NCBI GenBank assembly: GCA_041645025.1
Contig: JBAZQV010000002.1
Location: 1 to 51,340 of the forward strand
Length of the DNA stretch: 51,340 nucleotides
Direction: 5' to 3'
Source of the DNA: Candidatus Aenigmatarchaeota archaeon
GTDB taxonomy: Archaea; Aenigmatarchaeota; Aenigmatarchaeia; GW2011-AR5
A model generated the notes under the pieces. The model saw nothing but the letters and a program-made list of their open reading frames with translations, had not been told where the DNA came from and did no database searches. Every line of letters begins with the position of its first letter. The first letter of the stretch is position 1. Of the stretch, positions 13,423 to 50,430 are shown one piece after another. Position numbers and translations under genes: made by a program.

Positions 13423-13914
13423 ATGACTTACTACATTATTATCCGAGGTCCTGCAGCTAGCGGCAAGTCCACGATAGCAAGAAGATTAGCTAAGGAACTA
13501 AATGCTTATAGTATTCATCTAGATTCTGTTCTCGCCAAGCATAAGCTCGACAAGATTAAACGCGGTGGCATCAGCACGGAAAATTTCATTAAAGGAAACG
13601 CTCTGATTATAGACAAGATAAATAAAAGATTAGAAAGGGGTCAGATAGTTATTATAGATGCATGCTTTTATCGTAAGAGACATCTAGATGATTTGGTTAA
13701 GAATCTTCCACATAAGCATCTTATTTTTTCATTGAAGGCGTCAGTGGAAGAATGTATAAGAAGAAATAAATCACGCACTAGCGGAATGACCGAAAAAGAT
13801 ATACGTGATGTCTTTGCTCTTGTTTCTAGACTAAAGACAGAATTGTACATCGACACAGAAGGTAAAGTTATCAATGAAATTATTTCAGAAATGAAGAGAC
13901 ACCTTCCGCACTAA
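13423..13914 (+). CDS. Small P-loop kinase/ATPase (163 aa); paralog of 49933..50430
   Basis: Walker A IIIRGPAASGKSTIARRLA. Shares IDACFYRKRHLDDLVKNLPHKHLIFSLKASVEECIRRNKSR with the second copy (FDGCFYHKTQIIHLTKNLPYHHFIFTLKANVEECIRRDVKR). Confidence 0.7.
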   Translation: MTYYIIIRGPAASGKSTIARRLAKELNAYSIHLDSVLAKHKLDKIKRGGISTENFIKGNALIIDKINKRLERGQIVIIDACFYRKRHLDDLVKNLPHKHLIFSLKASVEECIRRNKSRTSGMTEKDIRDVFALVSRLKTELYIDTEGKVINEIISEMKRHLPH

Positions 13915-15753: not shown

Positions 15754-16143
15754 TCACTTCACAAACTCAACATTATTCATGCTTTTGAATTCTTTGTCCC
15801 CTGTCAGGAATTTAACATTATTTTCAATAGACATTATGTACCCGAGGTAATCTACATAGCTAAGATTCTTGCTCCTGTTTAAAAACCTGAATTTTGCAGC
15901 ATTTTTTATCGTCTCCTCATTGTACGATATTGCAAAATTGAGGAATATTTTGTAGTAAACCTCTGCCACACGTTCGTTGTAGTTAAGCAGCAGGGCATAA
16001 TAAAGCTCCAACAGGTTGAGCATGGAAGTTAGCTTGTTAGCGTTCTTGTATTTTTCATAATTGCTATTGCCTTTTATGAGTTCAATTAATGCGTAAGTAT
16101 CAAAGAAGAAAGTTTTAGTCATTCCAAAGCTCCTTGTCAACAA
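15754..16143 (-). CDS. vapC: PIN-domain toxin (VapC-like), 129 aa
   Basis: N-terminal acidic motif FFFDTYALIEL and C-terminal YVDYLGYIMSIENNVKFLTGDKEF. Overlaps the upstream AbrB-type gene. Confidence 0.75.
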   Translation of the reverse strand: MLTRSFGMTKTFFFDTYALIELIKGNSNYEKYKNANKLTSMLNLLELYYALLLNYNERVAEVYYKIFLNFAISYNEETIKNAAKFRFLNRSKNLSYVDYLGYIMSIENNVKFLTGDKEFKSMNNVEFVK

Positions 16144-18441: not shown

Positions 18442-18870
18442 ATGATAGTCCTTGACAGCTGGATTTTTATAGAATACTTCTCTGATATGGAGAACAAAAG
18501 CTCAGCCGATCTGGTGGAGAATCCTTCGGACACAAGAGCGATAAGCTCCGCTGTTCTGGCAGAAGTCAAGTACAGAATATCAAAAAAATTTGGCAACTCA
18601 AAAGCTTCGGACGCCATAGATGCGATAAACTCACTACCGAACTTGCGTATATTGCCGGTTACGAAAGAGATTGCGGAATTCGCGGCAGAGTTGAGACTAA
18701 AATATTATAGTAAAGAAAGACAGCTATCCTATATCGATGTGATTAATCTGGCAACTGCAATCAAGATTGGATGCGACAAATTCTATACTGGTGACCCAGA
18801 TTTTGAGGGGATAAGTGAGATTGAAATAAAGAATATACGACAGACGAAAACAAATTCCATATATAAATAA
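18442..18870 (+). CDS. vapC: PIN-domain toxin (VapC-like), 142 aa
   Basis: MIVLDSWIFIEYF and SYIDVINLATAIKIGCDKFYTGDPDFEGI. Confidence 0.75.
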   Translation: MIVLDSWIFIEYFSDMENKSSADLVENPSDTRAISSAVLAEVKYRISKKFGNSKASDAIDAINSLPNLRILPVTKEIAEFAAELRLKYYSKERQLSYIDVINLATAIKIGCDKFYTGDPDFEGISEIEIKNIRQTKTNSIYK

Positions 18871-21317: not shown

Positions 21318-24300
21318 ATGGTGCGGAAAAAAGGTTACATTGGGATATCTGTATCTTTGGTCTTATTCGCAGCGCTGTTTTTCATATACAATTCGCAGCC
21401 CGCTGCTGCGTTGATATGCGACGAGGCTGATTGCTTTTATTGCTATGACATCTATCCGATGTGCAAAGATCTTATATCAGTGGGTGCTGGAGGATACAAT
21501 AAATATCAAGTTGGCAGTTGCCCAGGCGGCTGTTACGGGCCATGTGAAAAAGTTGATTGGTGCTGTTCTACTGTCAACCGAGCTAAATTTCTGTATGGGT
21601 GTATGGCATGTGATAGTGGACAGGTTTATACAAATGGCCAATGTGTGACACAGTGTCCCGGCGGCCAGGTTTGGGATGGTAGCAACTGCGTGTGTGGAGC
21701 AGATCAATATTGGGACGGTTCAAACTGTCAGAGTTCTAGATGTGGTGACGGGTATTGCGATCCGACTGAATCAGGCTGGTCGTGCCCGAAATATCCTGAC
21801 GGCTCTGGGGGCGGGGACTGTGCCTGCATTGCAACATCAAGGACGTGCAATTACGCCGGCGTCTTTGAGCACTACTCCAACTGCGGAGGCAAGCAGGTAA
21901 TTGATACTTGCCAATTCGGCTGCTTGGACGGCAAATGCAATCCTGATCCTTGCGCCGGCGTTACATGCAACAGCCCGCCTGCGTCTTACTGCAGCGGCAC
22001 CAGTGTTGTATATTACAATTCTCCGGGAACTTGTTCCGGCGGCAGCTGCGGTTATTTGACAGGCAGTTACGGTTGCCCGACTTCAGGGTGCAGCGGCAGT
22101 TATCGTCAGGCAGGCGGCTGCAGCGGCGGCTCGTGTTATCTGAACAGTGTTGAAAATTGCGGCAGCGATTACTGGGGCTGCTCGGACAGTGAAACACGCG
22201 CGTACCGGTCCCAGGGGTGCAGCGGCGGCAACTGCTATGGCAGCTGGTCGCAGCCGCAGAATTGCAACAACAACAATTATTGCTCAAATTCAGGAGTCAC
22301 CTACCCGACATGCACAAACAGCGACACTGCTGTAACAAGACAGAACAGGGTTTATAATGACTATGGCTGCTCCGGCGGCAACTGTTATCTGGCGTCGCAA
22401 TACGCGTCAGGCAGCTGCCCGCCTGTCGACACAAGTCCGGTGACATGCAGCAACAGCAATGGGTGGGTTAATGTCGGCGCACCTTATTCCGCGTGCAATT
22501 TGGGCAGCGCATGCACTGCGCAAAACCAGGAATACAGGAGCTATGGATGCTCTTCTGGTTCGTGCACTTATTCTGTTACAAATACCCAGACTATTTACTC
22601 TGGTTGCTCTTCGTGCCCGTCGAGCGGCTGCAGCGGAGACACGCGATATTATAGCGGCACATGTTCCGGCGGCTCATGCACATATGGCGGCAGCCAGGAC
22701 TGCAACGTCAATAACTACTGCGGCAATTCCGGAAGCCCTTACTCAGTGTGTAGCAGCAGCAATATCGTAGTGACAAGACAGGACAGGGTTTACAATGATT
22801 ACACATGCTCTGGAGGAAACTGTGCTGTTGCTTCATCCTATGCTTCAGGCAACTGTCCGCCTGTTGACAGCAACCCGCAAACATGCAGCCCTTCGGCACC
22901 GACATGCTCAGGCACTTCAAGATGCACTTATAGTGCTGGCTGCTCCGGCGGCAGTTGCTACAACAGCCCTTCATGTTCACAATGCCCTACGCCAGCTACA
23001 GCTTGTTCAGGCACTTCAGTTCGCACTTACTCTCCAACCTGCTCCGGCGGTTCCTGCAGTTCAACATATTCAGATTCACAATGCCCTACGCCAACACCAG
23101 TTTGCGTGAGCAGTGGCACATTTCGCACTTACTCTCCAACCTGCTCCGGCGGTTCCTGCAGTTCAACATATTCAGACTCTGCATGCCCGGGTGGAACGAC
23201 ATGCAGCGGCGGCAGTTGCATTTCCTGCATCTGTTCTACACCAAGTCCTACTTGCGCTGACTCAGTAACAAAGCGCACCTATTCTCCAACATGCCCAGGA
23301 GGCAGTTGCAGCTCGACATATTCAGATTCAGCGTGTCCTACAGCAGCCACAGACTGCGCAAACTCCGTAACAAGGCGCACCTATACTGCCTACTGCTCCG
23401 GCGGCACCTGCGGCAACACACCTACGAGCACAACCTGCCCTACAGTATCCACAGACTGCGCTGACCCCGTAACAAGGCGCACTTATACTGCTTACTGCTC
23501 TGGAGGAAGTTGCGGCAACACACCAACAAACACAGCATGTCCTAGCCAGGCACCTACATGCGCTGACACAACCACCCGCCGCACCTATTCCCCAACCTGC
23601 TTGGCTGGCAACTGCGGAGTCAGTCCGGTTGATGCAGCATGTTCTGTAACATCGCCAACATGTGCTGACTCCGTAACAAGACGCACTTATACTGCTTACT
23701 GCTCTGGAGGAAGTTGCGGCAACACGCCTACGGACACAGCCTGCCCGACATCAGCTGCGACTTGTGCAAACCCAACCACCCGTCGCACATATGCTCCAAC
23801 CTGCTTGGCCGGCACCTGCGGCAACTCACCAACAGACTCAGCTTGCCCTACACCAGCAACAACCTGCGCAGACGCAAACACAAGACGTGTCTACTCAGCA
23901 ACCTGCTTGGCCGGAAGCTGCGGCTCGACTTATACAGACTCTGCCTGTCAGTATGGCTGCTCCAATGGCGTCTGCGGAACTAACCCGTGCTCGCCAAATC
24001 CTTGCACAAACGTGCCTCAAAACACATGCAGCGGCAGTACGTTGAATGTTTACTCTTCATTATGCACGCCTTCAGGCGGCTCAGCATCATGCTCATATCC
24101 TGCCACGCCTCAATCCTGCCAGTATGGCTGCCTTTCTTTGCCTGGGCCTGACCAGTGTGCTGCTAACAGCCCGCCGACATTTAGCAGCGTTTCTGTGTCA
24201 GGCGCTTTCCAGAGCTATGTGAGGAACGGGCACACGATTGCAGTGAGCTCTGCTGGCACTGATCCGAATGGCGAGCAGGTCAAGCTCAAGTGCGGAAGTG

Positions 24301-27227
24301 CTACGGGCAATTATAATTTATGCACTGGCAACCCTGTTGCATCAAACCCAACATGCTCTTTCACTAATAGCTGGTCTGATTCCAATGACCACACAATTTA
24401 CTGTGCCTTGGAGGACAGCGCAAGCGCGAACTCTGTTGAGCGCACAGCAACGGTCTCAGCTGACAACACAGGTCCTACGCTTACATTATCCAGGAGCCCT
24501 TCAACCGCACAGATAGCTCCGGGCATTTCAGTTAGCCTGACAGCTGACGCGTCTGATGCCAGGAGCGGAATTTCGATAATCAATATTGTTGTTGACGGCT
24601 ACAATGCCAAACTATGCAGCAGCGGCACCTGTTCGTATACCTTTACGCCTTCCTACGGTTCTCATACTTACTATGCCAATGCCTATGACCGGGTCGGAAA
24701 TGTTGTGTGGGCACGTGACAGTTCCGGTGCACTGCCAGGGTCTGGCCCGAACGGGAACGGCACAGCACCGCCGCCTGGAACGAATCCAGGCGAAGGCACG
24801 ACACCGTTACCGCTACCAACACCAGTGCCAGGGGAAGTTGGCAGTCCGTGCTCTAATAATAATGATTGCCGCTCAAACGTGTGCAGCAACAGCCAGTGCA
24901 CAGCCGCACCTGGACCATTACCACCGCCGTCACCTATGCCTGTGAACAACGCGCCTACGGTGCAGCCCATGGACTTTACGCCAAGGGGCAGCTGCAAGCA
25001 GGGCAGCACGATAACGCTGCAATGCACTGCCTCTGACGCAAATCAGGCAGCGAACACACTTTCAACAAAGGCATGGTCAGGCACGTGCACTGTCGGAAAC
25101 TGCTTTGCAACACGCTCATGGACATATCTTAACAATGCGGGCATGACAGCGCCTTCCAGTGGCGGCACATTCACGAGAGACATTACAATAACCGCGCCTG
25201 AAGGAACAGGCATAGCAGCCACATGCCAGGCAACCGACTCCCTGAGCGCGACATCGAACTGGGGTGATGCTTATCCGCTTTGCGTTGTCAACAACTGCCC
25301 GAACCCGCCTACGATAACAATTACCTCCATAACACCAAACCCGTCGCCTGCCGGCACTCTGTCTGTAACGTTTACAGCGAGCCGCTCACTGCAGGGCGAT
25401 CCTGTTGTAAAGATCAAGCCTGGCTCGCAACAGGGCGGCACAAGCCAGAAGGCAGGAAGCATGCGCCAGAAACAGGGGAACAGCTACACATTTGATATTC
25501 CTGTCAGCGCCGGCGACGCAAACGGCATATCAGATGTCTGGGTTGACGCTGGATTCACAGCGCCAAACGGCAACTGCCAGTTCAGCAGCCCGATACAGCA
25601 GATTACTATAGACACCCAGCCACCGACGACAACAGCGCGATGCAACGGGCTGCCTTGTTCTAATATGATTTACACTGCTCCATTGCAGCTGACATTTGGA
25701 TGCAGCGATGCGACGACCAGCTGCGACTCCACATTGTTTAGTGTTGATTCGCGTGCCAGTGATAAATACAGCGGCACCCGCCAGCTTTCTGCTGACGGTC
25801 CTCATACTATTTATTATCTCTCCAACGACAGTCTTGGAAACCGGGAAATTGAAAAAAGCCAGCCGATAAGCGTCTTCAAGCCGCCATGCATAAACCCTGC
25901 AGAAGAGCCTTCCTGCAATCCAAGCGGATTCGTGGGCGTGGAATTATATGCCAAGCTTGACTTCAGCAAGACCAGCGTAATTACAGGCGATGACGCCCAG
26001 GCAAACCTGTACTGCTTCCTGCGCACCAAGGATCTTACAAAACGGTTTATACGGCCTTGCAACCCTGACCCGACCAAGCTGTCAATTATTGTTGACAAGG
26101 GAACAGCGAATCAAAAAGATTACTTTAATCCAGCTAATGGTTACATACCGCCAAGCAGGGCTGACTTTGTAAAGCCAACTTATCAGAAAGACGGTAATTA
26201 CAACCTGCCTACAATAGACGGAACTTACGCAATAACAAGAAGATGGGATTTCAAACTCAACACAAATATCTTCCGCTCGAGCGTGTGCATTAATGTCACT
26301 GATCTTGGCTCGGGCCTTAGTGTTGAAGCCTGCGGCGACTACACTGTCACGGAAACAGAATTTCTCTTCGGCGCATATTTCCCTGACTTGGGCGTGACAG
26401 TGCCGCTTACCATTGACCCGGGGCATGACCAGGTTGCCAACTTTACCAAAACCATGCTCATAAACTTCACAGCAGTGCCGAGCACAAGGACGTTTTCAGG
26501 TGTGTCTGTATGCGAGCCGCCAAACTGCCGGGTTGATTTCAGCTTTGACGCGCCTACATATGACAAGACAACAAAATGGGACGCTTTCCGGAAAGTATTT
26601 GTCGCGTCCAATGTAATTGATATTGCCAGCAATAATTTTGCCTGCGACCAGTACAAAACCATCTATCTTCAGGCGCAACAGGCAGGCGGACCGCCAGCCA
26701 CGACTTCAAAGGAATTCTTCGTCAACTGCCAGACAAAGATAACTGTCACGCCTGTGGAAAAAAGATTCGCCCTGGGCGACCAGCCTGCTGACAATGTGTT
26801 TAGCGTAACAGTGTACAACCCGAAGGAAGGAGCGGCTAATAAAATATTCGACGTTACGTCGTCCACCACAAGCCCTATTTTCAGTTTCCAGTGGATAGAG
26901 TTCAAATGTACTGAAGGCGGATGCATTGTCGACCCTGATAATAACGACAAGGTTCAGCTGGACATGCCTCCGGAGTCCCAGAAATCATTTTCCGTCTCTG
27001 TTTCCACTGTGGCGAGGACAGGCTCGTTCCCGATAACCTTTGTCGCAACTGACCCAGACGGCAACACATATTCGACGCTGGCCACAATCCTTGTGTTTGC
27101 TGAGGGCCTTGACGAGTTCGCTGCGTGGCAGCTCATAATATTAGTGATTATAGCCATTGCGTTTATCGCATACTATAAGATTGATCTTGGGCATAGGAAA
27201 AAAAGAAAAACTAGCAAAAGAAAATAA
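21318..27227 (+). CDS. Giant (1969 aa) cysteine-rich surface protein: N-terminal anchor/signal, CSGGSC-type Cys repeats, Ig-like domains, Pro-rich linkers, C-terminal TM helix plus basic tail
   Basis: Uninterrupted 5.9 kb ORF. N-terminal helix ISVSLVLFAALFFIY. More than 20 C[SP]GG[SNT]C motifs. C-terminal WQLIILVIIAIAFIAYY followed by KIDLGHRKKRKTSKRK. Confidence 0.85.
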   Translation: MVRKKGYIGISVSLVLFAALFFIYNSQPAAALICDEADCFYCYDIYPMCKDLISVGAGGYNKYQVGSCPGGCYGPCEKVDWCCSTVNRAKFLYGCMACDSGQVYTNGQCVTQCPGGQVWDGSNCVCGADQYWDGSNCQSSRCGDGYCDPTESGWSCPKYPDGSGGGDCACIATSRTCNYAGVFEHYSNCGGKQVIDTCQFGCLDGKCNPDPCAGVTCNSPPASYCSGTSVVYYNSPGTCSGGSCGYLTGSYGCPTSGCSGSYRQAGGCSGGSCYLNSVENCGSDYWGCSDSETRAYRSQGCSGGNCYGSWSQPQNCNNNNYCSNSGVTYPTCTNSDTAVTRQNRVYNDYGCSGGNCYLASQYASGSCPPVDTSPVTCSNSNGWVNVGAPYSACNLGSACTAQNQEYRSYGCSSGSCTYSVTNTQTIYSGCSSCPSSGCSGDTRYYSGTCSGGSCTYGGSQDCNVNNYCGNSGSPYSVCSSSNIVVTRQDRVYNDYTCSGGNCAVASSYASGNCPPVDSNPQTCSPSAPTCSGTSRCTYSAGCSGGSCYNSPSCSQCPTPATACSGTSVRTYSPTCSGGSCSSTYSDSQCPTPTPVCVSSGTFRTYSPTCSGGSCSSTYSDSACPGGTTCSGGSCISCICSTPSPTCADSVTKRTYSPTCPGGSCSSTYSDSACPTAATDCANSVTRRTYTAYCSGGTCGNTPTSTTCPTVSTDCADPVTRRTYTAYCSGGSCGNTPTNTACPSQAPTCADTTTRRTYSPTCLAGNCGVSPVDAACSVTSPTCADSVTRRTYTAYCSGGSCGNTPTDTACPTSAATCANPTTRRTYAPTCLAGTCGNSPTDSACPTPATTCADANTRRVYSATCLAGSCGSTYTDSACQYGCSNGVCGTNPCSPNPCTNVPQNTCSGSTLNVYSSLCTPSGGSASCSYPATPQSCQYGCLSLPGPDQCAANSPPTFSSVSVSGAFQSYVRNGHTIAVSSAGTDPNGEQVKLKCGSATGNYNLCTGNPVASNPTCSFTNSWSDSNDHTIYCALEDSASANSVERTATVSADNTGPTLTLSRSPSTAQIAPGISVSLTADASDARSGISIINIVVDGYNAKLCSSGTCSYTFTPSYGSHTYYANAYDRVGNVVWARDSSGALPGSGPNGNGTAPPPGTNPGEGTTPLPLPTPVPGEVGSPCSNNNDCRSNVCSNSQCTAAPGPLPPPSPMPVNNAPTVQPMDFTPRGSCKQGSTITLQCTASDANQAANTLSTKAWSGTCTVGNCFATRSWTYLNNAGMTAPSSGGTFTRDITITAPEGTGIAATCQATDSLSATSNWGDAYPLCVVNNCPNPPTITITSITPNPSPAGTLSVTFTASRSLQGDPVVKIKPGSQQGGTSQKAGSMRQKQGNSYTFDIPVSAGDANGISDVWVDAGFTAPNGNCQFSSPIQQITIDTQPPTTTARCNGLPCSNMIYTAPLQLTFGCSDATTSCDSTLFSVDSRASDKYSGTRQLSADGPHTIYYLSNDSLGNREIEKSQPISVFKPPCINPAEEPSCNPSGFVGVELYAKLDFSKTSVITGDDAQANLYCFLRTKDLTKRFIRPCNPDPTKLSIIVDKGTANQKDYFNPANGYIPPSRADFVKPTYQKDGNYNLPTIDGTYAITRRWDFKLNTNIFRSSVCINVTDLGSGLSVEACGDYTVTETEFLFGAYFPDLGVTVPLTIDPGHDQVANFTKTMLINFTAVPSTRTFSGVSVCEPPNCRVDFSFDAPTYDKTTKWDAFRKVFVASNVIDIASNNFACDQYKTIYLQAQQAGGPPATTSKEFFVNCQTKITVTPVEKRFALGDQPADNVFSVTVYNPKEGAANKIFDVTSSTTSPIFSFQWIEFKCTEGGCIVDPDNNDKVQLDMPPESQKSFSVSVSTVARTGSFPITFVATDPDGNTYSTLATILVFAEGLDEFAAWQLIILVIIAIAFIAYYKIDLGHRKKRKTSKRK
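22984..23970 (+). repeat. Tandem 99-102 nt (33-34 aa) cysteine-repeat array inside giant gene 2
   Basis: Unit is CP[TS]xxxTC[AS][DN]xxT[RK]RTY[ST][AP][YT]C[SLP][GA]G[STN]CGxxPT[DNS]xA. Seven units have an exact 102-nt period (Arg/Lys codons at 23271, 23373, 23475, 23577, 23679, 23781, 23883). They are preceded by three related units, two of which share a ~50-nt identical block. Confidence 0.8.
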
Positions 27228-31843: not shown

Positions 31844-31925
31844 GACATATTGAAATGCATCACAGAAAAATTACAAAAAACATTCTTGCACAAATAAATA
31901 TGGGCGGAATTCAATAGTATTGTAT

Positions 31926-32639
31926 ATGGGGGAACGTGGTACAGCTTACCGAAGTGACCGAATACGACGCACGCACGCTAAGATACCTTTTCCTATTTAT
32001 CCTGGTACAACTTTCATCGGTTATGATGAATCTGGATTCTTTCCGCCAAAGACTGATGAATATGCAGCACGGTTCAAGCGAATGGTGCTTTGTGCAACAC
32101 TGTCAAATAACCCTGTTGATGGCGCAGTATTTACACATGCCACAGAACTTGCATCCTATATTCATCAGTCAGGTAGTAAACAACCACAACGATTATGGAC
32201 AGAATTAAATGGTGCTCACTCGAGAAGTCCTGTACTCAGCAAAAATAGTATTGCAGCAAGAATGGTTTGTGTAGCCAGACTTATTATGGAACTTGGCTAT
32301 ACGGGTTCTGTTGCCGCGCCTGCATATATAGACAGGTTCTGGCCAAGACAGTTTGACGGATTATTCTATTCGATTTTAGGATATTACGGCGTTAAAGATT
32401 TCGGGAACTCATTGTATATTGAACATCACGCAGATACCCATGTTCGCATTGTTAAAGATGCAGAAAGAGAGGCAAAGCATCTCTGGCACTCTCCTTCAAG
32501 GCATAGTGATCATGCAGATTCTTTTCTTGATGTTTCACCTGATGAAATTGCTCGATGTATGGCTTACATGGCAAAAAACGAAGGTGCGGAATTAAAAGGG
32601 CTGCGTGATTTTGAGTTCCGTGATACATCTTCTCTTTGA
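31926..32639 (+). CDS. Hypothetical protein, 237 aa
   Basis: Long ORF. The only suggestive motif is FIGYDESGFF (DESG as in DUF3800/RNase H-like N termini). Assignment not supported further. Confidence 0.45.
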   Translation: MGERGTAYRSDRIRRTHAKIPFPIYPGTTFIGYDESGFFPPKTDEYAARFKRMVLCATLSNNPVDGAVFTHATELASYIHQSGSKQPQRLWTELNGAHSRSPVLSKNSIAARMVCVARLIMELGYTGSVAAPAYIDRFWPRQFDGLFYSILGYYGVKDFGNSLYIEHHADTHVRIVKDAEREAKHLWHSPSRHSDHADSFLDVSPDEIARCMAYMAKNEGAELKGLRDFEFRDTSSL

Positions 32640-32745
32640 TGCCTAACAAAAATTATTTTTTCATAATGCCTATAAAGCCTTTTTCTTCAAACACTATAAT
32701 TATTGCAATGAATGTAGTTCAATATAAGCATGAGGTGGTAATACT

Positions 32746-33429
32746 TTGACAAAAATATTGGGCATAGACGAGTCCGGTAGAACTCTATGAGTACCGTTAG
32801 GCCCTGTCTGTGGTCCCATGACAATTTGTGGCTATATAATAGAACAGGATAAGCTAGCGGAGCTGAAGGGAATGGGTGTCAAGGACTCGAAGCTTCTTAC
32901 GGGGGCAAAACGCGGCGAACTTTACCCGCTTCTAAAGAAACTCGCTCATGATTTTGTTGTCCTGAAGATTTCTGCGGAGGAAATCGATAAGTTGCGCAGC
33001 GAAAGCAATCTAAATGCAATGGAAATAGAACGAATGCAGCATATTATAAACATGTTCAATCCGGACAAAGTAATAATAGACTCGCCAGAAGTGGATACTA
33101 AGAATTTTTCCAAAAAAGTAATGGCTAAGGTGAAAAACAAAAAGATGGAGATTGTAGCTGAGAATTTTGCCGATAAAAAATATCCGGTCGTGGGCGCTGC
33201 TTCCATACTGGCAAAGGTGGAACGGGACCGTGAAATAGCAAAACTGCACAAAAAATATGGCTTCTTTGGCAGCGGATATCCGAGCGACGAAATCACTATT
33301 AGGTTTTTAAAGGATTGGATTAAAAAGAATAAAGAGTTTCCCCCTTTTGTGCGCAAAAGCTGGTTCACTGCCCACTGGATAAAGGAGGAAAAAGAGCAGA
33401 AAAGTATCGGGAAATTTTTGGGCAAGTAA
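32746..33429 (+). CDS. rnhB: Ribonuclease HII, interrupted after codon 12 by an 18-nt BHB-flanked insert with an in-frame TGA; proposed as join(32746..32780,32799..33429)
   Basis: TTG start is preceded by GAGGTGG. Translation reads LTKILGIDESGR|TL*VPL|GPVCGPMTICGY... The downstream body has typical RNase HII blocks (KDSKLL, IIDSPEVD, GAASILAKVERD, GSGYPSD). The ORF-track start (32818) would remove the catalytic DE motif. Confidence 0.75.
32781..32798 (+). other. Candidate 18-nt bulge-helix-bulge intron in the rnhB mRNA
   Basis: See the first finding. Central helix 32775-32778/32793-32796, 3-nt bulges 32779-32781 and 32797-32799, inner helix 32782-32785/32789-32792. Confidence 0.5.
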
Positions 33430-35575: not shown

Positions 35576-35670
35576 AATTACATATTGAGAACTTTGATTA
35601 ACCCTATAATTTGTCAAAGTTCACAATAAGGACTTTGAATGAAATGTATACTTATTCAAAGTCCTCTATT
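35576..35670 (+). repeat. Repeat R1, copy 2 (hairpins C and D of the rpoF-upstream array)
   Basis: About 95 nt, roughly nine-tenths identical by eye to 28384-28478. In both places it ends ~12-18 nt before a gene start. Confidence 0.7.
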
Positions 35671-35688
35671 GACTGTTCAGGTATATGT

Positions 35689-36081
35689 ATGAGGATAGAG
35701 GAACACAGGAAGGCTTTGGAAGAGCATGAAAGGAATATCAGGAGATGTATAGATGATGGAATGGAGAAAAATCAAAGAAATATTGGATATAATATATCTC
35801 AGGCAAGCATAGAGATGCTATCAATATACTTGTTGAAACTTAAACTTGTGCAGGTTTCTATAAATTTTGACCACAGGATTTTCAAGCATTCAAAGTCCAT
35901 ACGAGAAAAACTGGTTTTTGATTTTCCCAGAAAGACAGAAATAATGGATCTTATGAGAAAAATTGAGGAAAAAAGAAATATTCTATGCTATGGCAAAAGG
36001 AAGTCCGAAAAAGAAATTGTCGAAATGCTGGCGTTTTATAATAACCTTAAGGAAATTGTTGGTGAGTTACATGAAGAATGA
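35689..36081 (+). CDS. Helical protein (130 aa), possible HEPN-like partner of the downstream nucleotidyltransferase
   Basis: Start trimmed to the ATG beyond repeat R1. All-helical composition. Overlaps the NTase gene by 11 nt. Only a weak Rx3H (DHRIFKH), so the HEPN call is tentative. Confidence 0.4.
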   Translation: MRIEEHRKALEEHERNIRRCIDDGMEKNQRNIGYNISQASIEMLSIYLLKLKLVQVSINFDHRIFKHSKSIREKLVFDFPRKTEIMDLMRKIEEKRNILCYGKRKSEKEIVEMLAFYNNLKEIVGELHEE

Positions 36082-36667
36082 TAGAATAGCTTATGCTGCT
36101 GCATTCTGCTCTTTTTTGATTGAAAGAGCTGAAAATATAAGATCTGTTATATTGTTTGGCTCCGTAAGTCGCAAAGATGCAGACAGGGAGAGTGACATAG
36201 ACATTTTCATAGACACAATGTCAGAGAGCACCAGAATAAACAAGATACTGAATGAGTTCTACAAATCTAAAATAAATGAGCTCTGGAAACTCAAAGGAAT
36301 AAAAAATCCTATATCATTGATTGTTGGCAACATAGAAAATAAAGAATGGACTGATCTAAAAAGAAGCATAATAACTGATGGAATAATTTTATTTGGCAAA
36401 TATAAATCAGAACCCGAAAAATTAAGGCATTATACGCTCTTTTCTTACAGAAACATAAAAGATGCAAAAAAGAGGGTGAACCTCCATAGAAAGCTGTTCG
36501 GTTATAATATCAGTGATAAACATTATACTGGTATTGTATCAAAATCAAACGGCATAAGACATGGCAGTGGCAGTTTTTCAGTCCCTATAGAGAATTACAA
36601 AGAAGTTCGTGAGATATTCAGGAAGATGAAAATAACACCAGAAATAATAGAGATATGGATAGGATAA
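36071..36667 (+). CDS. Minimal nucleotidyltransferase (MNT/Pol-beta superfamily) protein, 198 aa
   Basis: ILFGSVSRKDADRESDIDIFID (GS..D.D motif). Start set to MKNDRIAY. Confidence 0.7.
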   Translation: MKNDRIAYAAAFCSFLIERAENIRSVILFGSVSRKDADRESDIDIFIDTMSESTRINKILNEFYKSKINELWKLKGIKNPISLIVGNIENKEWTDLKRSIITDGIILFGKYKSEPEKLRHYTLFSYRNIKDAKKRVNLHRKLFGYNISDKHYTGIVSKSNGIRHGSGSFSVPIENYKEVREIFRKMKITPEIIEIWIG

Positions 36668-38644: not shown

Positions 38645-38773
38645 AAATAATTATAGTAAAAAAGAGATTAAAATACAAACTAAGCCCAAATAAATACTTG
38701 CTTTCCAATTATGGTCGTTTTTTGTCCCTAATTATCTTTTTATTCGGGAAAATCCAATAAAATCCTAGTGCAT

Positions 38774-41700
38774 ATGAAAGCGCAAACAGCTTTAGGTATA
38801 TTTATCGCATTTGGCGTAGTATTATTAATAGGATTGTCTTTTTTTACAACCAAGGCTTATGCAGAGCCATGCAATTGCTTTGATAACACTGACTGCGCTG
38901 TTGGTGAAACGTGCGATCCTGATAACACCATGTGCACGGTAACTGATGGCAATGTAGGCATGTGTGTTGCTGGCGGTGGATTTACTTGTACCCCTGCCTG
39001 CACTTCTCCACAAGTATGCCAGAGCGGTACATGCGTTACTCCTCCTACTACACCACCCGGCACTGATACAGGCGTAGCAATAGGAGTTGGCGACGTGACA
39101 TCGTGTTCAGGCACAACAGGCTGCGCTGGCGCAACGTGTCGCTGGAGCAAATGCGCGACAACTGCTAACCCCACAAAGATAGAGTTCACATTTACCATAC
39201 CTAACACGTGCAATGGAAATTCAATATGGTCAGGTGGAAGATGGGTTCCTGCTAATCCGTGCAGCACAAATGCTGTTTCATTTCCTGCCAGCGTGAAAGC
39301 TGCTTATGCCAACAACTGCCTGCACAGCATTCTTCTCACAGAAGTTCAGTCCGATGATTATGGAAAAGTGTGCGCTGGTCCAGGGTGCAGCGCCAGCAGC
39401 GCTCCAGCCGCCGGCATTATTCCAGGTCCGGGTGGCGGCGGCGGTGGTGGCGGAGGCAATAGTTTTGTTTCTGGCACACCCATACTGCTTGTTGATGGCA
39501 GTTCCAAGCCAATTGAAGAAATAAAGATTGGAGACAAAGTCCGTTCATTTGACCCGGAGACCGGCACTTTCTCTATTGGTAATGTCACGTCTATTCTTAC
39601 ACGAGATGTTCAGGAAAGTTATATTCTTGACTTTGATGACGGTTCAAGTGTAGGAGTTACTGGGACACACCCGTTTTATGTCAAGACAGCCGCTTCCGGA
39701 GTTCCTACTATACACAAATATTTTGTGCAGGTCAAGGACCTGATGGCTGGCGACCGGGTCTACAAGGCATATGACAACCGGGCTGTTTCTGTCAAGATTA
39801 CTGTTATTCGGCAGATATCAAAGCCAGTTACTGTTTATAATTTCAACGTTGAGCCGTTTCATACATATATTGCCAACAACATGGTGGTCCATAATATCAA
39901 ATCAGAGAGAGGTCCCTTCGCAAATGTCGTGGCAAAGCCGACGTTTAGCGTGACAGGATTTGCGACAGCCAGCGGCGGTGTTATCTATACAGCAGCAAGC
40001 AATGCAGTCTGGGCACCAAACGTTGACGCGACTAACGCGTTTGACAAAACAGACCCAAAAGTAAGCCTTTATGTTGTTGATACGATAGCCGCAAACTACG
40101 GCGGAAATTCAAGAACCATAGGCGCGACGTTTAAGGTAATAATTCTCAATCCATCTCCAACACAGAAATGCGTTATGGATACGGCAACGGGAAAACCAAA
40201 AATAGTACCTTTGTGTGCTGGCACGACAGCAGAATGTACTCAGACACCTACGGAAATACCAACACTTACTGCCCCGCGGTGCATTGATTTGACAAGTCAG
40301 AACGGATGGCAGGCTACAGGTCCTGCTGTCTCAAAATGTGTTGACAGCAATCAGTACAAGGCTATGGTTACACCACAGGCGTACAAGGTCTCTACGTGCA
40401 CAAAATATGTACCAGACCTGACATTTTCAAAATATGGTAATTATACAACTAATGCAACCGCTCCTGGTACTCCGCCCCGCGGTGGTTCTGCTACGAGAGA
40501 TAACTGGACAACAAGAACGTCCTGTGGCACCCTTGGCTGCAATCCTGCTACTGGATTGTGCAAGACAGGCGGTGGAGGTGGATGCCCTGATGGGCAGACA
40601 AAGTGCAGCGACGGTGTTTGCAGGACTGACTGTGGCGGCACTTGCATAAAGCCCCCTTTGCTTAATTCAATAAATGCAACTCCGCGGCGAGTGGCGCCTA
40701 CAGGTATTGTAACAATGTCAAGTATTGGTTCCAGTTCTGAATCCATAACAGATGCAGGCAGCACTACTCCAAGGCGAATGAAAGTGAAGCTGGAGTGCGG
40801 CACAGCTGAAGGTAATATTCAAACTACTAGCCCTCCACCAGGCGGCGACGATACCGCGTGCAGGACCAGAACTAACCCGGCATCAATACTTGCTTCTGTA
40901 CGGGCTGCGCGTGCTGCGTACGGCGCAATGGTTAGTGCTGAAGAAGCAGCGGTTCTCTTAAACAAGGCAGCATGGGACAACAAAGACGCTGGTTGGGGAT
41001 TGCTAAGCAAGACAGGTGGAAATAGTTGTCCGCATTCGTCTGGTTCTATTTCATGTGATATTCTTTTCCATAAACCTTCTGGCTTGATATATGATGTTCT
41101 TGGCAGCGGGCCTGGGCCAGAAGGTCCTGGTCCAAGCAATCCGCAATGGGGATGTACTGGCAGAGCTGAAACAAGTAAGTGGGTTGCACCTACCACGCCT
41201 ACAGGCGGAGGCACTGCTGTTTGTGCTGGCAAAACTCCAGGCTGGTATGATCCTACAATGTGGGGTGGCTGCCCACTTTCAGAATGCCGACAGAATAGTG
41301 CAACATGCTCTAGCTGTGGAGAAGCTCTTGCATATTGCGATGGCACCAACTGGAAGACAGATTGGGACCCTTTTGTTACTGAAAGTCAAAAGGCCACAGC
41401 AACATCAGGTCATACGTGCCCTTGCGCTACCGGTCTTACAGGCGGAGTTACATCGAAGCCTACGTTCAGCGTGACAGGCTTTGCAACCGGCGGTGCGTGC
41501 GAAACTTGCGCTGAAAAAGGGCAGACAGATAAATACCAAAGTGATGTAAAAAATGCCGCAAACAAATATCTTGCTTCTCATCCGGAAATTGGAGATTTGC
41601 CAAGTTATGGTGCTGCTGATGGGGGGAGTGATGAAGGTGAAGCTGCAGTAGCCCAACTTAGAGACGGAGTAATTGCTATTTTAATTGGTCAAGGCTTTCA

Positions 41701-44700
41701 TGCCGAAACAATAGGAAGCTATCCTCAAATAGTAGCTGTTTGGAAAGATGGTGATCCCGATAAAACAGGGTATAGAGTAACTGCAGGTGGAGGAAAAATA
41801 CATGACGCAATTCAAGCAGGTTATTGTGGCGGACATGAGACTTTTGGTGGCACTGATATTATCCCTAGTGGTTGTACATCTGCTCCTACTGCTGCAAGAG
41901 ATGGTACGAGTGGCTCATGCCAGACGGGCAGCTTCACAGCAAACCTTTGCAGCGGACAACTCGCTGACAACAACCCAACTTGTACATTGACGCTCCCGCC
42001 AGAATGGAAAAGGGGCGGCTTCTTCCAGAATCTTTACTGCCGCCTTAAGGATGAGTCCGGCATGTATTCAAACTCAAGCAGGACAAGCATAATAGTTGAC
42101 AACAACCCGCCGACGTCAAGAATAACCGAGCCGGTGGCGAACAGCGTCCAGACAGCCAACTTCCAGATTAAGGTCACGGACGCAGATGATTCTGGCCTGG
42201 ACAAATGTTATTATACAACATCTGGTAACACAGCTACGCCCATTGCTTTGCCGCGGGGAAACATTGCGCTTTCAAATCCTTACAGGGTATGGAGACCGCT
42301 TGACGTGGCTTATAGCACTAAGAGTGATGTGGCGCTGGCTGTGTGGAGCACTGAACATCAAGGTAAGGTCATCGGCCAGTTTATAACGGATGCCGGGGCG
42401 CTGCGAGGCGGTAATGTTATTCTTGGAAGTAGTAGTGATTTCGTTGGCTCAATAAAAATCACCTATGACGAGGATGATGATTTGTTCTTAGTTGCATGGG
42501 GTGCTGCTGCCGGCAACAATATGGGACCAACATATGGCAGCTTGGTAAAAGCAGATGGAACTTTTGTCAAGCAGAATTTTGTTATTATGAACAACTGTGA
42601 TTTAGGCATTCATGCTTCCTCCAGCGGAAATATAGCCTATAGCTCAGGCGCGAAAAAATTCTTTGTATCATGTACGCGTGGCGTCATAACCAGGGGCAGC
42701 ATTATAGGTAATTCAGTTACGCCAACCGGCACTGTTGGGAATGAAGTGGTGGTGACAGGTGATGGAATGTTTGGCTCTTCAGCTGCGGCAGGCGGGAGCA
42801 GTGTTCTTGCTACATGGTTTGATCAGAACGGCATTGCCTACGGCAGACTATACAATCCTAATGGCGCAGCTTTGACAGGTCCAATTAGAATTTCAACCGG
42901 AACGCTGGGAGGTTATGTTTCGCTTGTCGCGTTCTATGATACTACACGCAATGAGTATACCGCTTTCTACTGGGGGAGTGTTGGAAGAAAACTTTACAAA
43001 CGCACCATTGGACCAAGCGGTACTCTGGGAACCGAGTCTACTGTGTTCACCAACAACAATGTCGGGGTCAGTGACATTGCCTATAATCCTTTGACCGGCA
43101 GCTATTTTGTTGCTGACCAGCACCAGGATGATAACGGAAATGGTTATATTAAGATAAGCAGCGGTGGAGCTGCGTCAGGGTCAGTTAGAGTTTCTGAAGA
43201 CATGACGCTGCCACATTACACACCAGCTATAATAGCTACAGGGAATGACGTGCCGCTTACAATAATGAATCAGGCTGGTGATGCTTATGCGCAGTTCGGT
43301 GGGTTGGGAGGCGCAATTAGTGGCGGCAGACTCAGAATATGCAACAGCCAGACAACAATAACCGTTGGGCCTGGTAACGATTGTCCTGACCAGGGCTCTT
43401 GTACTGTAAGCGCTTTTGCGACCGACACTGTTGGCAACATTGGTGCACCGGATTCACGCAGCTTTACGATAAATTTGATTCTTACAAATATTACTTCCCC
43501 ACTAGACGGCAGCAACCAGACCGGTAACTTTTCCGTGAATGTTCAGGACAGGGACTTTGCTTCTACGACAAACAGCACAATTACATGCACCTATGATATC
43601 TACAGTGTTGGTTCAACATCTACAAAGATAGTTGACAATGCAGCGCGCAGGTGCAACAGCAACTTCACTGTGAGCATTGGACCTGATGGCGACTGCAATC
43701 TCATGGGACAGGGTTCATGCAAAGTTGTTGCAAAGGTCAACAAAACTATGAACGGCACCAGAATCGAAGATACCAGTACAAGATTCTATAACATTGACTG
43801 GGTTACACCTTTCTCAGAAATCGTCAGTGCACCTAGCAACTGGGTAACTTCGGACTTCACTATTTCTGTAAGTGATAACGCTCAGGGCGTTGCCAGCAGA
43901 ATATCAAAATGCCAGTACAAGGTGGTCAGCAATGCAACCCAAACCGTGTCATGGACTGACAGGGCATGTGGCATTGGCGCACCTGCCAGCGTAATGATAA
44001 CGGTCGGGCCAGGAAAGAACTGCAGGCACGAGGGCGGCGACGCGTGCACAATATTTGTCAGGCCTATAGGCATGTCAGGATTACCGGGCGTAGAAGATAA
44101 TGTTTCTGTTCCAATAATTTTTAATGTCACAGATACAAACGGCTTTTCGGTCACAACAACCACACAAACTGAAAGGGGCCTGAACTTCAGCGGCACTACA
44201 CGACAGGAGTTGAGATTATATACATTTTATGTCTGCAACAAAAACTCAAATGTTAACAGTTGCATAGCAGCATACAACAGCAACAACAGGGGCGCGAACA
44301 AGCCGAACTTCTGCGGCTCGCTTCTTGGTAAATGCGAGCTGAGGTGCAGCGACCAGACAGTTTTGTACTACTTTGCCGCGAGAGGCACACCGGTTGGCCA
44401 ATCCGCGACAGTTACTGTTGTCAGCACTATCACGAGCGCCGCATGCCCGACATTCAATATTGGCCAGATAAACGAATGGTATCAGATATTTACTGACCTC
44501 GATGTGCAAATTGGGACTGAGATAGGAATTGTTGATTCTTCCATAAGCCAGAACGGCGAGACGGCTATTGCCAACAACGAGACTCTTGTGATTCTAAGGG
44601 AAGCGCTGCTCATTACAAAAGACCATTTGAAAAATATGACGATGGAAATGCAGGACCTTACGGTTACAAAAGCGCGACAGCTGATTCAACGCTCGCTTGA

Positions 44701-47700
44701 AAAAAGAGACGACATTGACAGACTTCTAAGAGGAATAAGGCCTCCGACACGCGTATTGATGACTGTTGATATGCCGACTGTTGTGAGATTTAACCGCAGC
44801 ATGACCCTGACTGCTACAATAAACAAGGACGGCCCCACGGACGCGTACGGAACTGTCTACTGTACAATAACAAAGCCGGGTAATTTAGTCCAGCAGAACA
44901 GATCGTCATGCCTTGTGCTGGGTGGACCTGGTCATCACTCCACTGCTTATAGCGTTCCATTTATGCCTGACAGGCTTGGCACCTGGACTTACAGCTGCAA
45001 ACTGGGACGTTCGGTAAGACCTGACTGCTCCTTTGAGGTGAACCAGACGCCTGTTAGCGGCACGTTTGCTGTGTTGCCTGCTGCAAGCACTTTCATAGCT
45101 TCCTTATCAACTCCAGATAATGCGGTAAGAGGTAGTGTGGTGACTACAAACACTGTTGTGACAAATCCTGACAGCTCAGACAGGTTTGTTAATGTAACAT
45201 GTAATTTCAGATATATTTCCAACGGGCAGCTGATTACAAGAAGGAATTCATCAAGCTGCATTAGTGCTGCTACTGGTGATACAACAGTTCCCATTAAGAT
45301 GTACGCAAGCACTCTTGGCGAATGGAATGTAACCGGTTGCTCTGTGCGCTCATCTTCAACATCAAATTGTGCCAGCTCTGCTCTTGACAATACTTCTCTT
45401 GCTACTGCGAGTTACATGGTAATGCTGCCTGATTCGGTTTTCATAGAGTCTGTTGGCGTGCCTCAGGCACCTGTCCTGAATAACTCATTGCTAAGCATAC
45501 CGGTTATTATTAACAACCCCACACAAGACGTGGCTTATGTCACTTTGAACTGTGGAATAATAAAACCGGTTGGCTCAGTGACCGTCACGGACCAAAATGG
45601 CGTTGATTCTGGCAGGACCAGTTCGTTCACGCTTGATACCACGACTGACCGTGTTGGCAGGTGGAACATAAGTTCCTGCAATGTTTCTGTCTCTCCTGAC
45701 CCAAGTTTCTCAGGCAGCTCTGTTGTTTATACACGCAATAATGTGGGAACATTCAATGTTATCGCGCGCAGCAATCTTACAATAACAGCAGTGAATTCAC
45801 CAACTACGGTTCAAAATAATACGCTTACAAGCTTAAGCGTTTCTATTACAAACCCTTCCAATGCACGCTATGGCCGCGTTTCCTGTACTGTAAGAGATCC
45901 GGTTAATAGGGTTCATGTCAACAGTTCTGCATGTTTGATTGTGAACAGCAATGCGCAAAGAGTTTTTGCCATCAACTTCTTTATGAACAGGACTGGCGAA
46001 TGGCACATCACTCAATGCTCTGTTTACGGTTCAGCCAGCGCCGACTGTTCCTCGTATTCGCTACATGACAGAAAAGATTTTATTGATAACTCGTTTAATT
46101 CAACGGTTTCCTGCACTGCTGGCTTGTACCACGCTACGAACCCGGCAACAAGCGTGTGCCAGGAGTTTGGCAACAACTGTAACATACCTACCGGCTGGAT
46201 AAATATAACAGCAGGTTCGTGCCCGGGCGGCATGGGTGTTGTGTATGTATCATCAGTTTCAGTGCCGACCAGTGATGTGATAAATAATTCCAACGTGAAC
46301 ATAGACACACTGGTTACAAACCCTATAAATGATGACAGATTCGGCCAGGTCAGTTGCTTTGTCAAAAGCCCGAGCGGCGCAACGCAGCTGCTAACTTCAT
46401 CGTGCGAAGGCATAGCCGCCGCAAACGCACGAACATACAGGACGATTTTAACTGTTAATAAAGTAGGAGTATGGAACGTAACGACCTGCAGCGTAAACGC
46501 AAGCACGAGCTGCGCTTCGGCAACGTTACAACACATCCTTAACGCGAGCAAAACATTCAATGTAATACGTGGTGCAAACCTTTCCTTTGTGTCGTTCTCG
46601 CTGCCGCCGGACACGCTGGTAAATAATACTGCGACCACTGCTATAAACATAAGGAACCCTTCAGATGCAGCGAGATACGCACGCGTCTTCTGTAGCTTCA
46701 GGAACTCCCAGAACCAGATGACATCAAACACAACATCGTGCCTGCAGGTAGCAGGAACATCCACACCGACATTTGGAGTAAACATATTTGCGAACGTTGC
46801 CGGAACATGGAACGTTGATTCTTGCACATTGCGCGGTTCTCTTGACTCAAGCTGCTCGGAACTTCACGATTCTGAATCAGGTATAGGTGCGTTCAACATA
46901 ACTACGGTATCACCGCCGCCGGCTCTTGCAGAACTTTTCATAAGCAACCTAAGTGCCAGTTCGGCAGCTTTCAATGACAGCCGCATAAGCGTGCTGGTAT
47001 ACGGAAGAAACAATAACCTGGCCAACAGCAGTTATGCTATTGTTGGTTGTGAGTTCCTCAACCCGCTTGGTGGCTTGACCAGACAAGCGTCTTCATGCAC
47101 GCAGGTAACTGCAAACAGCACTGTGCGATTTGGAGTTTCGCAACTGCTTAACATACCTGGAACATGGACTGTTGCCAACTGCTTCATAAACGCGTCAAAC
47201 ACTAACAACTGTGCGCCTTCAATACTTAACAATGTTTCCGCAGAAACAAGAACGATAACAGTTTCGCTTCCTCCTAATCTTTACATCACAGGCGTCACCG
47301 CGCCGAGCGCTGATGTTGTAAATAACACGAACGTAAATATAGATGTCTTTGTCAACAACCCTCTCAATGACGACAAGTACGGACTCGTCAACTGCATAAT
47401 ACAAGATCCCAATGGAAATAATTATACCAGGGCCGCAGCCTGCTCCTCGGTGCCAAGACAGACCAGCAACAAGAAATACAATGTTTCTGTGGTTGCCAAC
47501 ATTGTCGGTTCATGGAACGTGAGAAATTGTTCTGTTAGTTCCTCCACCAGCTCGAGCTGCGCAAGTTCCTCTCCTGCCGGGGAACTTATAAACGGTGATA
47601 CATTCAATGTGATACGTGGCTACAACCTCACCTTATCATCCTTATCAGTACCACAGTCTGTTTATGTAAACCAGCCTTTGCGCGTGGCATACACGCTGAG

Positions 47701-49932: not shown

Positions 49933-50430
49933 TTAATCAGAGCTAGATGTTGGTAGGCAGAAAATTATCTTCTGCAATGTCCGTTCGGGTGTTTTTTTAT
50001 CGGTATTTATTACAGTCCCATAATCAAATGACATCAGTTTGTGGACAGCTTTAATGCTTTTTTCACCAATGCTTTTTCTTTTTACATCCCTGCGAATGCA
50101 CTCTTCGACATTTGCTTTTAGCGTAAATATGAAATGATGATAGGGAAGATTCTTAGTCAGATGGATTATTTGAGTTTTATGATAAAAACACCCGTCAAAT
50201 ATGACAATTCTACCTTTTTCCAGTTTCTTTATGGCCAGCGGGATCGTCAATTTATTTGCCTTTAGAAAATTTTCTTTTAGTATACATCGCCCTTTAACTG
50301 TGTCTAGCTTATTTTTGTGCAGTATAACGTCCATGGAAATATGATAACCTTTAATGCGCTTTGCCAATCTTTTTGATATTTCTGTCTTGCCTACGCCTGC
50401 TGGTCCCCTTATTATAATGTAGTAACTCAT
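49933..50430 (-). CDS. Small P-loop kinase/ATPase (165 aa); paralog of 13423..13914
   Basis: Walker A IIIRGPAGVGKTEISKRLA. Colinear similarity to the first copy along the whole length. Confidence 0.7.
   Translation of the reverse strand: MSYYIIIRGPAGVGKTEISKRLAKRIKGYHISMDVILHKNKLDTVKGRCILKENFLKANKLTIPLAIKKLEKGRIVIFDGCFYHKTQIIHLTKNLPYHHFIFTLKANVEECIRRDVKRKSIGEKSIKAVHKLMSFDYGTVINTDKKTPERTLQKIIFCLPTSSSD

Follow-up and report, generated by a model that had tools for sequence, protein, structure and literature searches.

The motif called the bulge-helix-bulge (BHB), in which two 3-nt bulges are separated by a 4-bp helix at the intron–exon boundaries (PMC5829648), is the substrate of the archaeal splicing endonuclease EndA and is present in the pre-mRNA of cbf5 (PMC5829648, PMC2738675). 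As of 2009, EndA-dependent splicing of a pre-mRNA had been confirmed only for crenarchaeal cbf5, other cases being predicted and unconfirmed (PMC2738675), and later papers on EndA cite only the cbf5 studies (PMC5829648, PMC12397907). No prior report of a BHB intron in rnhB, or in an mRNA of Aenigmarchaeota or of any DPANN archaeon, was found in the literature that we searched. Here we analyze a 51,340-nt stretch of DNA from a Candidatus Aenigmatarchaeota archaeon (assembly GCA_041645025.1, contig JBAZQV010000002.1, positions 1 to 51,340 of the forward strand; hereafter the window), in which rnhB, encoding RNase HII, carries a predicted 18-nt BHB intron inside its catalytic motif. In this tiny DPANN archaeon rnhB is a DNA-repair gene that looks essential.

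The rnhB intron falls in the mechanism class of cbf5, with a new host gene, a new superphylum and a rich set of natural variants. Like the cbf5 pre-mRNA intron of Desulfurococcales and Sulfolobales (Watanabe 2002; Yoshinari 2006; Yokobori 2009, PMC2738675), it is a short BHB-type intron in a protein gene, its removal is predicted to depend on EndA, the interruption has confused gene predictions, and its presence is patchy among close relatives, implying gain and loss. Unlike the cbf5 intron, it is hosted by rnhB in the DPANN/Aenigmarchaeota and not in Crenarchaeota, it does not belong to the cbf5 intron family, and it lies at codon 12 within the catalytic GIDExGRGP motif, its form in the window being only 18 nt long. 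Splicing of cbf5 has been shown experimentally, whereas the rnhB intron is predicted from comparative evidence.

The rnhB intron shares the hBHBh′ geometry (outer helix h, central helix H and inner hairpin h′) and the cut rule with the canonical and non-canonical BHB introns found in the pre-tRNA and pre-rRNA of archaea (Marck & Grosjean 2003; PMC5829648), and its size falls among those of small tRNA introns. It differs from those introns in its mRNA host, where codons (GAG UCC GGU AG / A GGC CCU) limit the sequences that the exon strands of h and H can take, and, unlike tRNA introns, it has no mature tRNA body to assist recognition. Several rnhB relatives with a weak outer helix resemble the HBh′ form, which in tRNAs needs an EndA of broad specificity. 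Two further parallels lie outside archaeal introns. The eukaryotic HAC1 and XBP1 also carry a non-spliceosomal mRNA intron that is handled by a structure-specific endonuclease, acting at paired stem-loops, and a tRNA ligase (RtcB in metazoa) with an altered protein as the outcome, but their endonuclease is Ire1, which recognises another motif and acts under stress regulation. Bypassing in phage T4 gene 60 likewise concerns a short stop-containing hairpin gap whose flanks encode a continuous protein; it is ribosomal, however, and needs matched take-off and landing codons, which are absent in rnhB, whereas rnhB conserves the features of a BHB.

An 18-nt insert interrupts the catalytic motif of rnhB

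In the open reading frame (ORF) listing, RNase HII is called at 32818–33429 with an ATG start and 203 aa, and this ORF begins ...MTICGY, 3′ of the GIDE motif. Direct reading revealed an upstream in-frame start, TTG 32746, preceded by GAGGTGG at 32732–32738. The frame from this TTG reads LTKILGIDESGR-TL*VPL-GPVCGPMTICGY, in which the stop is TGA 32788–32790, and after an 18-nt insert it resumes GPVCGPM. The initial annotation of this DNA, made from the letters and the ORF listing, had placed the called start at ATG 32818, had read the TTG 32746 frame with GAGGTGG as its ribosome-binding site and TL*VPL as its interruption, had seen GRGP split by 18 nt containing the TGA, and had proposed that removing 32781–32798 would give GRGP in frame; each of these readings was confirmed.

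In-silico deletion of 32781–32798 (AACTCTATGAGTACCGTT) generated an in-frame protein of 221 aa that matched the Pfam RNase_HII profile (PF01351) end to end, residues 5–202 corresponding to profile positions 1–198/199 (E 1.4e-45). The spliced product aligned ungapped through GIDEsGRGPV with the RNase HII of P. horikoshii (1uax, E 2e-50) and with the solved enzyme of T. kodakarensis (2dfh, E 8e-46). A full RNase_HII domain with the N-terminal Asp-Glu was obtained only from spliced rnhB. The catalytic Asp-Glu of archaeal RNase HII is the one in the GIDE motif, which exon 1 encodes here. In protein and locus searches, the closest named relatives of this rnhB were metagenome-assembled genomes (MAGs) of Candidatus Aenigmarchaeota.

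The insert and its flanking codons fold as a bulge-helix-bulge

The unconstrained minimum-energy structure of 32762–32812 computed by RNAfold was an hBHBh′ in which a 4-bp helix separates the two 3-nt bulges. In h, H, both bulges, h′ and the UAU loop it was identical to the fold that had earlier been drawn by hand, and it contained in addition an 8-bp exon–exon helix (32763–70/32805–12). The flanking helices, for which at least 2 bp each is asked, have 3 bp plus the 8-bp extension (h) and 4 bp (h′). The 5′-strand bulge lies on the loop side of H and the 3′-strand bulge on its outer side. This topology was reportedly given by Marck and Grosjean in 2003 as that of the canonical 37/38 tRNA intron, and cutting after the second nucleotide of each bulge is likewise said to be canonical. 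Cutting one nucleotide further 3′ in both bulges leads to an identical spliced product.

Related rnhB genes carry inserts at the same site

DNA of relatives was taken for short Aenigmarchaeota RNase HII proteins, together with genome and metagenome loci (numbered with the prefix L below). Fourteen loci from independent assemblies, that is the window and 13 others with 12 distinct inserts among them, have an insert at the same junction of GIDExGR|GP, between the second and third bases of the Arg codon (AG|A, once AG|G). The inserts measure 18 nt (window, L001, which equals L018 and L019, L017 and L002), 27 nt (L046), 29 nt (L025, L026, L045, L047 and L048), 30 nt (L042, L043 and L050) or 32 nt (L049). 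Those of 29 and 32 nt break the frame, and the in-frame ones hold one or two stops, so that readthrough or an inserted peptide is excluded and the conserved protein requires excision at the RNA level or an equivalent. Application of the BHB cut rule yielded AGA or AGG (Arg) followed by GGN CCN in 14/14 loci. The 5′ bulge is AGA in all 14, and the 3′ bulge is UUA, UCA, GUA or AAG, every one of which gives AGA or AGG after joining. The 3-4-3 geometry is present in the 14 loci, with H fully paired (4/4 bp) in 12. An alignment of rnhB from related genomes had been proposed in the initial annotation as a check on the intron; in it, orthologs were either precisely free of the insert or carried inserts of 27–32 nt in which compensatory changes keep the BHB.

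Upstream of exon 1, the arrangement of GAGGTG(G/A) and TTG was also found in L042, L043, L045, L046, L047 and L049, and the exon 1 peptide L[TL][KR][IV]LGIDE[SA]GR is conserved in the intron-bearing loci that were compared for selection. Because the Shine-Dalgarno-like sequence and the TTG start are conserved upstream of it, exon 1 is evidently meant to be translated.

Public gene calls miss the interrupted N-terminus. Protein searches returned a conspicuous subset of Aenigmarchaeota RNase HII proteins of 200–207 residues that start with ...M(T)(I/M)CGY or inside the insert (LPLGPV..., LPVGPV...), and every examined call for an intron-bearing allele was either N-truncated (186–207 aa) or began inside the intron (P0030, P0075, P0129 and P0131). 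The NCBI entry HIG97268.1, a 203-aa ribonuclease HII annotation, is N-truncated and has no catalytic motif. Around P0003, which is of L001 type and 89% identical to the query, lies a 90% cluster of nine members; all are N-truncated, and one of them, P0121, occurs on 27 contigs. Truncation does not always signify an intron, since the calls at L044 and L051 are truncated in intron-less genes through miscalled starts.

Covariation and purifying selection support an RNA structure inside a functional gene

For covariation, an alignment (A1) was anchored on the splice junctions, which leaves no alignment choices, and 11 pairs were scored. In A1, 92.3% of cells pair, and double changes occur in 6/11 pairs (21 cells). 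The covariation score was 0.536, vs 0.20 ± 0.03 for shuffles (0/500 reached it) and at most 0.14 when the partners were slid by 1–3 columns. H is paired in 96% of cells, its pair 1 occurring as C-G, A-U or U-A and its pair 4 as U-A, U-G, C-G or G-C. The four bulge-proximal pairs of h′ are paired in 100% of cells and show double changes at all four positions, while h′ otherwise consists of unrelated hairpins of 4–11 bp among the relatives. The h pair adjoining H is C-G in 13/13 relatives, and the other two pairs form in 10/13 and 7/13. When the real sequences of unequal length were aligned with MAFFT and folded with RNAalifold, H, the 3-nt 5′ bulge and h′ were recovered with eight covarying pairs.

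The spliced coding sequence (CDS) gave ratios of nonsynonymous to synonymous divergence (dN/dS) of 0.04–0.10 against relatives at dS of at least 0.7 (0.7–1.2 and higher), indicating strong purifying selection, and the 11 spliced CDSs that were translated end to end showed no other frameshift or stop. Intron differences within the 18-nt clade are limited to 0–2 of 18 positions, one of the changes converting A-U to G·U, and codons 6–17, which span the structure, differ synonymously at 0–1 of 12 vs 29–38% of identical-residue codons elsewhere. The exon flanks outside H form a duplex averaging −9.9 kcal/mol in intron-bearing genes (n=13) vs −5.4 in intron-less ones (n=16), a difference with Mann-Whitney p = 1.5e-4 among sequences that are related. 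The RNA structure, comprising the intron and its flanking codons, is under selection.

A proposed EndA- and RtcB-dependent splicing model

Together these data make it very probable that rnhB holds a genuine BHB intron in its coding region, predicted to be removed from the pre-mRNA by EndA and RtcB. In this model rnhB would be transcribed as a precursor whose codons 6–17, together with the 18-nt insert, adopt a canonical hBHBh′ structure. EndA would cut after the second nucleotide of each 3-nt bulge, that is after 32780 and after 32798, leaving 2′,3′-cyclic phosphate and 5′-OH ends, and an RtcB-type ligase would then join ...GGU AG|A GGC CCU... and release the 18-nt intron. RNase HII at its full 221 aa, catalytic Asp-Glu included, would be encoded by the ligated mRNA only; translation of the unspliced mRNA would stop after 14 residues or, if begun at ATG 32818, would give an enzyme without the DE motif. 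Which enzymes act, where exactly they cut and that splicing takes place in vivo are inferred from these comparisons. The proposal in the initial annotation that rnhB needs an endonuclease and a ligase for an active enzyme is supported by the inserts of orthologs, the independent assemblies and the purifying selection, all of them sequence comparisons. To our knowledge, EndA and RtcB are universal in Archaea. Because the motif in the window is a strict hBHBh′, any type of EndA should, under published substrate rules, accept it.

Several observations weigh against this model. The fold energy of 32762–32812 is unexceptional (z = −1.88, with 9/200 shuffles equally good), and a scan of the whole window found relaxed BHB-like motifs to be frequent (+ strand, 208; − strand, 250). 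Motifs of this kind arise often by chance, so that the BHB taken alone carries little weight as evidence. One mismatch in H occurs in each of L002 (G·A) and L026 (A·G), and the outer helix h, paired in 77% of cells overall, is reduced to a weak 1–3 bp in several relatives. Where h is weak or H mismatched, as in these relatives, an EndA of relaxed or broad specificity would be needed; specificity of this kind was inferred for a number of DPANN lineages having α4 EndAs with the L3 loop (PMC5829648). A Pfam scan of the ORFs in the 51-kb window detected no EndA or RtcB gene, and the databases searched yielded, for intron-bearing alleles, neither a spliced transcript nor a full-length protein; the cluster members examined were 186–203 aa long or began inside the intron. 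The p-values from shuffling and from the Mann-Whitney test are optimistic, the sequences being phylogenetically related.

How far the BHB exceeds chance was gauged by placing random 18-mers at the insert site, about 0.13% of which formed, in the required register, both H and an h′ of 3 bp or more. The motif by itself is modestly above chance, and its conservation and covariation in relatives lift it above chance. An ORF-rescue filter on the scanner candidates was too permissive (148 hits, mostly within long ORFs) and was dropped.

Alternative explanations

Among the alternatives, one that is very improbable keeps the element and changes the machinery: the insert would be removed by a route other than EndA and RtcB, through another structure-specific nuclease and a ligase, or would be a small mobile hairpin whose BHB shape is incidental. 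Intron types do not track the host protein tree, which hints at mobility. What is conserved, however, is exactly what defines an EndA substrate, namely flanking helices and a 4-bp helix with a 3-nt bulge at either end, the two bulges lying on opposite strands. The BHB cut rule gives an Arg codon every time, and nothing indicates another nuclease and ligase. We know of no other archaeal system that excises such elements precisely.

Translational recoding, by readthrough of the stop or by bypassing of the gene 60 kind and with no RNA splicing, is very improbable and is refuted by the insert lengths and the flanking codons. The length of 18 nt is divisible by three, the insert has just one UGA, and a hairpin right after a take-off site resembles bypassing elements, but the inserts of 29 and 32 nt in relatives shift the frame and those of 27 and 30 nt contain one or two stops. 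Nor are there matched take-off and landing codons, AGA being followed by UUA|GGC, GUA|GGU or AAG|GGU, and recoding does not require the conserved 3-4-3 BHB geometry with its pairing of exon to intron.

There is likewise very little chance that rnhB in fact yields the N-truncated protein of 203 aa that starts at ATG 32818, with a conserved leader or short ORF and a regulatory hairpin upstream of it. All database calls have this form, and many relatives share an in-frame Met (…PMTICGY/…MCGY) a few codons 3′ of the junction. Such a protein would be without the catalytic Asp-Glu of the exon 1 GIDE motif, and the supposed leader encodes exactly the missing N-terminus, the frame being continuous after excision by the BHB rule at 14/14 loci. 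Intron-less orthologs encode the contiguous protein, the internal Met is a conserved residue of the family (GP[ML]), and the conservation of exon 1 would be left unexplained.

A barely credible reading is that rnhB is a decaying pseudogene, inactivated by a stop-containing 18-nt insertion whose BHB-like fold is coincidental, as the in-frame TGA, the N-truncated ORFs to which gene callers are confined and the frequency of BHB-like motifs by chance might suggest. It is largely refuted because the spliced CDS is under purifying selection, with the low dN/dS holding across both exons; the initial annotation had itself named decay as an outcome that would speak against an intron. Exon 1, the Shine-Dalgarno-like sequence and the TTG start are conserved, the insert persists at the same junction with compensatory changes down to ~60% protein identity, and there is no second rnhB within the window.

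Finally, an assembly or sequencing artefact, which the metagenomic origin of the contig might suggest and which had been listed for checking, has a negligible probability and is refuted by the recurrence of the 18-nt form in independent assemblies, with 1–2 substitutions in the GTDB MAG UBA10154 (L001), a second MAG (L002) and JGI/ENA metagenome contigs (L017, L018 and L019), as well as by the uniformly N-truncated P0003 cluster and the many contigs bearing P0121.

Distribution and history of the intron

Intron-bearing genes diverge down to ~60% protein identity, and intron-less orthologs are interleaved with them in a neighbour-joining protein tree. For seven intron-bearing genes the nearest relative, at 77–88% protein identity, is precisely intron-less. 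In five intron-less genes (L003, L006, L008, L009 and L020) the junction codon is AGA, which is consistent with precise loss. Further afield, RNase HII genes of Hadarchaeota and of other Aenigmarchaeota have no intron. The intron looks old within the lineage and appears to have been precisely lost many times, repeated gain looking less likely.

Two types of intron sequence recur. AAATTG...CAATT/GTTT occurs in L025, L043 and L045, and AAAG[TC]AAAA...TTTT[AG]CTT in L026, L042 and L048. Each type is found in three separate host subclades with 60–75% host protein identity, a pattern incongruent with the neighbour-joining protein tree, which may reflect lateral movement of the intron, old polymorphism or an error in the tree.

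Coordinates and surroundings of the locus

The features of the interrupted gene are listed in Table 1.

Table 1. Predicted elements of the rnhB locus and its bulge-helix-bulge, in window coordinates.
Feature	Positions	Strand	Remarks and evidence
Shine-Dalgarno-like GAGGTGG	32732..32738	+	7 nt 5′ of exon 1 TTG; direct reading
rnhB exon 1: TTG, LTKILGIDESG, bases AG of the Arg codon; catalytic Asp-Glu of the GIDE motif	32746..32780	+	
Extended exon–exon helix, 5′ strand CAUAGACG	32763..32770	+	pairs with 32805–32812 across a small internal loop; RNAfold
Outer helix h, 5′ strand GUC	32772..32774	+	pairs with 32800–32802; RNAfold
Central 4-bp helix H, exon strand CGGU	32775..32778	+	pairs with 32793–32796; RNAfold
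5′ bulge AGA	32779..32781	+	predicted cut after 32780; RNAfold
Predicted BHB intron, 18 nt, AACUCUAUGAGUACCGUU; in-frame UGA 32788–32790	32781..32798	+	excision restores GRGP and colinearity with solved RNase HII
Inner hairpin h′, ACUC/UAU loop/GAGU	32782..32792	+	stems 32782–85/32789–92; RNAfold
Central helix H, intron strand ACCG	32793..32796	+	RNAfold, covariation
3′ bulge UUA	32797..32799	+	predicted cut after 32798; RNAfold
rnhB exon 2: from the last base of that Arg codon to the stop; internal ATG 32818 is the callers' start	32799..33429	+	
Outer helix h, 3′ strand GGC	32800..32802	+	RNAfold
Extended exon–exon helix, 3′ strand UGUCUGUG	32805..32812	+	RNAfold, flank pairing, codon constraint

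Directly 5′ of rnhB lies a gene at 31920–32639 (+) encoding ~240 aa, which is conserved (L006 ~2255, L017 ~787), has no Pfam match and carries an N-terminal IG(I/Y/V)DESG. It was considered as a second rnhB and rejected, since it shares only the DESG-like motif and has no significant similarity to RNase HII (E = 0.13). By Pfam, the site is surrounded by archaeal housekeeping genes, and the gene neighbourhood includes Pus10, a class II aspartyl-tRNA synthetase, a class I lysyl-tRNA synthetase, a DUF655 protein, an EMC6-like membrane protein and several giant Ig-domain proteins. The overlapping ORFs 35611–36081 and 35963–36667 (+; overlap of 119 nt, different frames) were examined as another interrupted gene and look like two separate small genes, the first encoding an unknown 156-aa protein and the second a Polbeta-type nucleotidyltransferase whose TTG start is probably over-extended.

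The initial annotation had also invoked a neighbouring tRNA with multiple introns as a sign that the genome tolerates BHB-type introns; this tRNA was not found by ARAGORN, Rfam, a T-loop pattern or runs with BHB deletions. ARAGORN reported no tRNA in the window with default settings, with introns allowed or with a lowered threshold, Rfam gave none at the gathering score or at E<=1, and the T-loop pattern search returned nothing credible. When ARAGORN was run on 25,634 sequences with one or two BHB candidates deleted, a single weak match was obtained, inside a giant ORF.

Elsewhere in the window, two giant ORFs with Ig-like domains encode 2498 aa (129–7625) and 1969 aa (21318–27227) and are typical of DPANN surface proteins. 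The segment 22001–26000 inside the 1969-aa ORF has a G+C content of ~0.54 vs 0.38–0.47 elsewhere, for which compositionally distinct repeats or a foreign origin are possible causes, and a SNORD56 C/D-box match at 598–664 (+) inside the 2498-aa ORF (29.3 bits, gathering score 36, E = 0.044) is probably due to chance. An IS200-like Y1 transposase (PF01797, E 1e-24) is encoded at 8689–9150 (+), between a giant Ig-domain gene and two radical-SAM genes. A 3438-aa ORF at 38768–49084 (+) has an N-proximal Hint/pretoxin-HINT domain (PF07591, E 5.6e-13) at residues ~237–376. Two PIN-domain genes are located at 15754–16143 (−) and 18442–18870 (+), and two paralogous KTI12/AAA_33-like kinase genes at 13423–13914 (+) and 49933–50430 (−).

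Significance of the rnhB intron

The statement in the initial annotation that protein-coding BHB introns are known only from cbf5 agrees with the literature searched, where other cases were predicted and unconfirmed as of 2009 (PMC2738675). If the rnhB intron is spliced as proposed, a second gene family in another superphylum would mean that mRNA splicing in archaea is more than an isolated case. Within the rnhB family there are a dozen natural variants with compensatory changes and many cases of precise loss, and its series of 18–32 nt, running from strict to relaxed BHBs, tests the substrate rules of EndA on a substrate other than tRNA. The rnhB intron is also a tractable case for the study of intron gain, loss and possible mobility. 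Because all examined calls for intron-bearing alleles lack the catalytic motif, BHB-aware gene finding is needed for DPANN genomes.

The stem of the BHB begins 17 nt after the start codon, and because the structure starts so close to it, translation initiation and BHB folding should compete. On a wider reading, which is speculative and rather unlikely, the rnhB intron would be one case of a larger population of unannotated BHB introns in DPANN protein genes, ancient and possibly moving laterally, that targets the sequence for the invariant GIDExGRGP, and its splicing would gate the synthesis of RNase HII. The initiating ribosome and the folded EndA substrate would on that wider reading be mutually exclusive. 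If this were true, splicing would impose a splice-before-translate checkpoint on an archaeal genome-maintenance enzyme.

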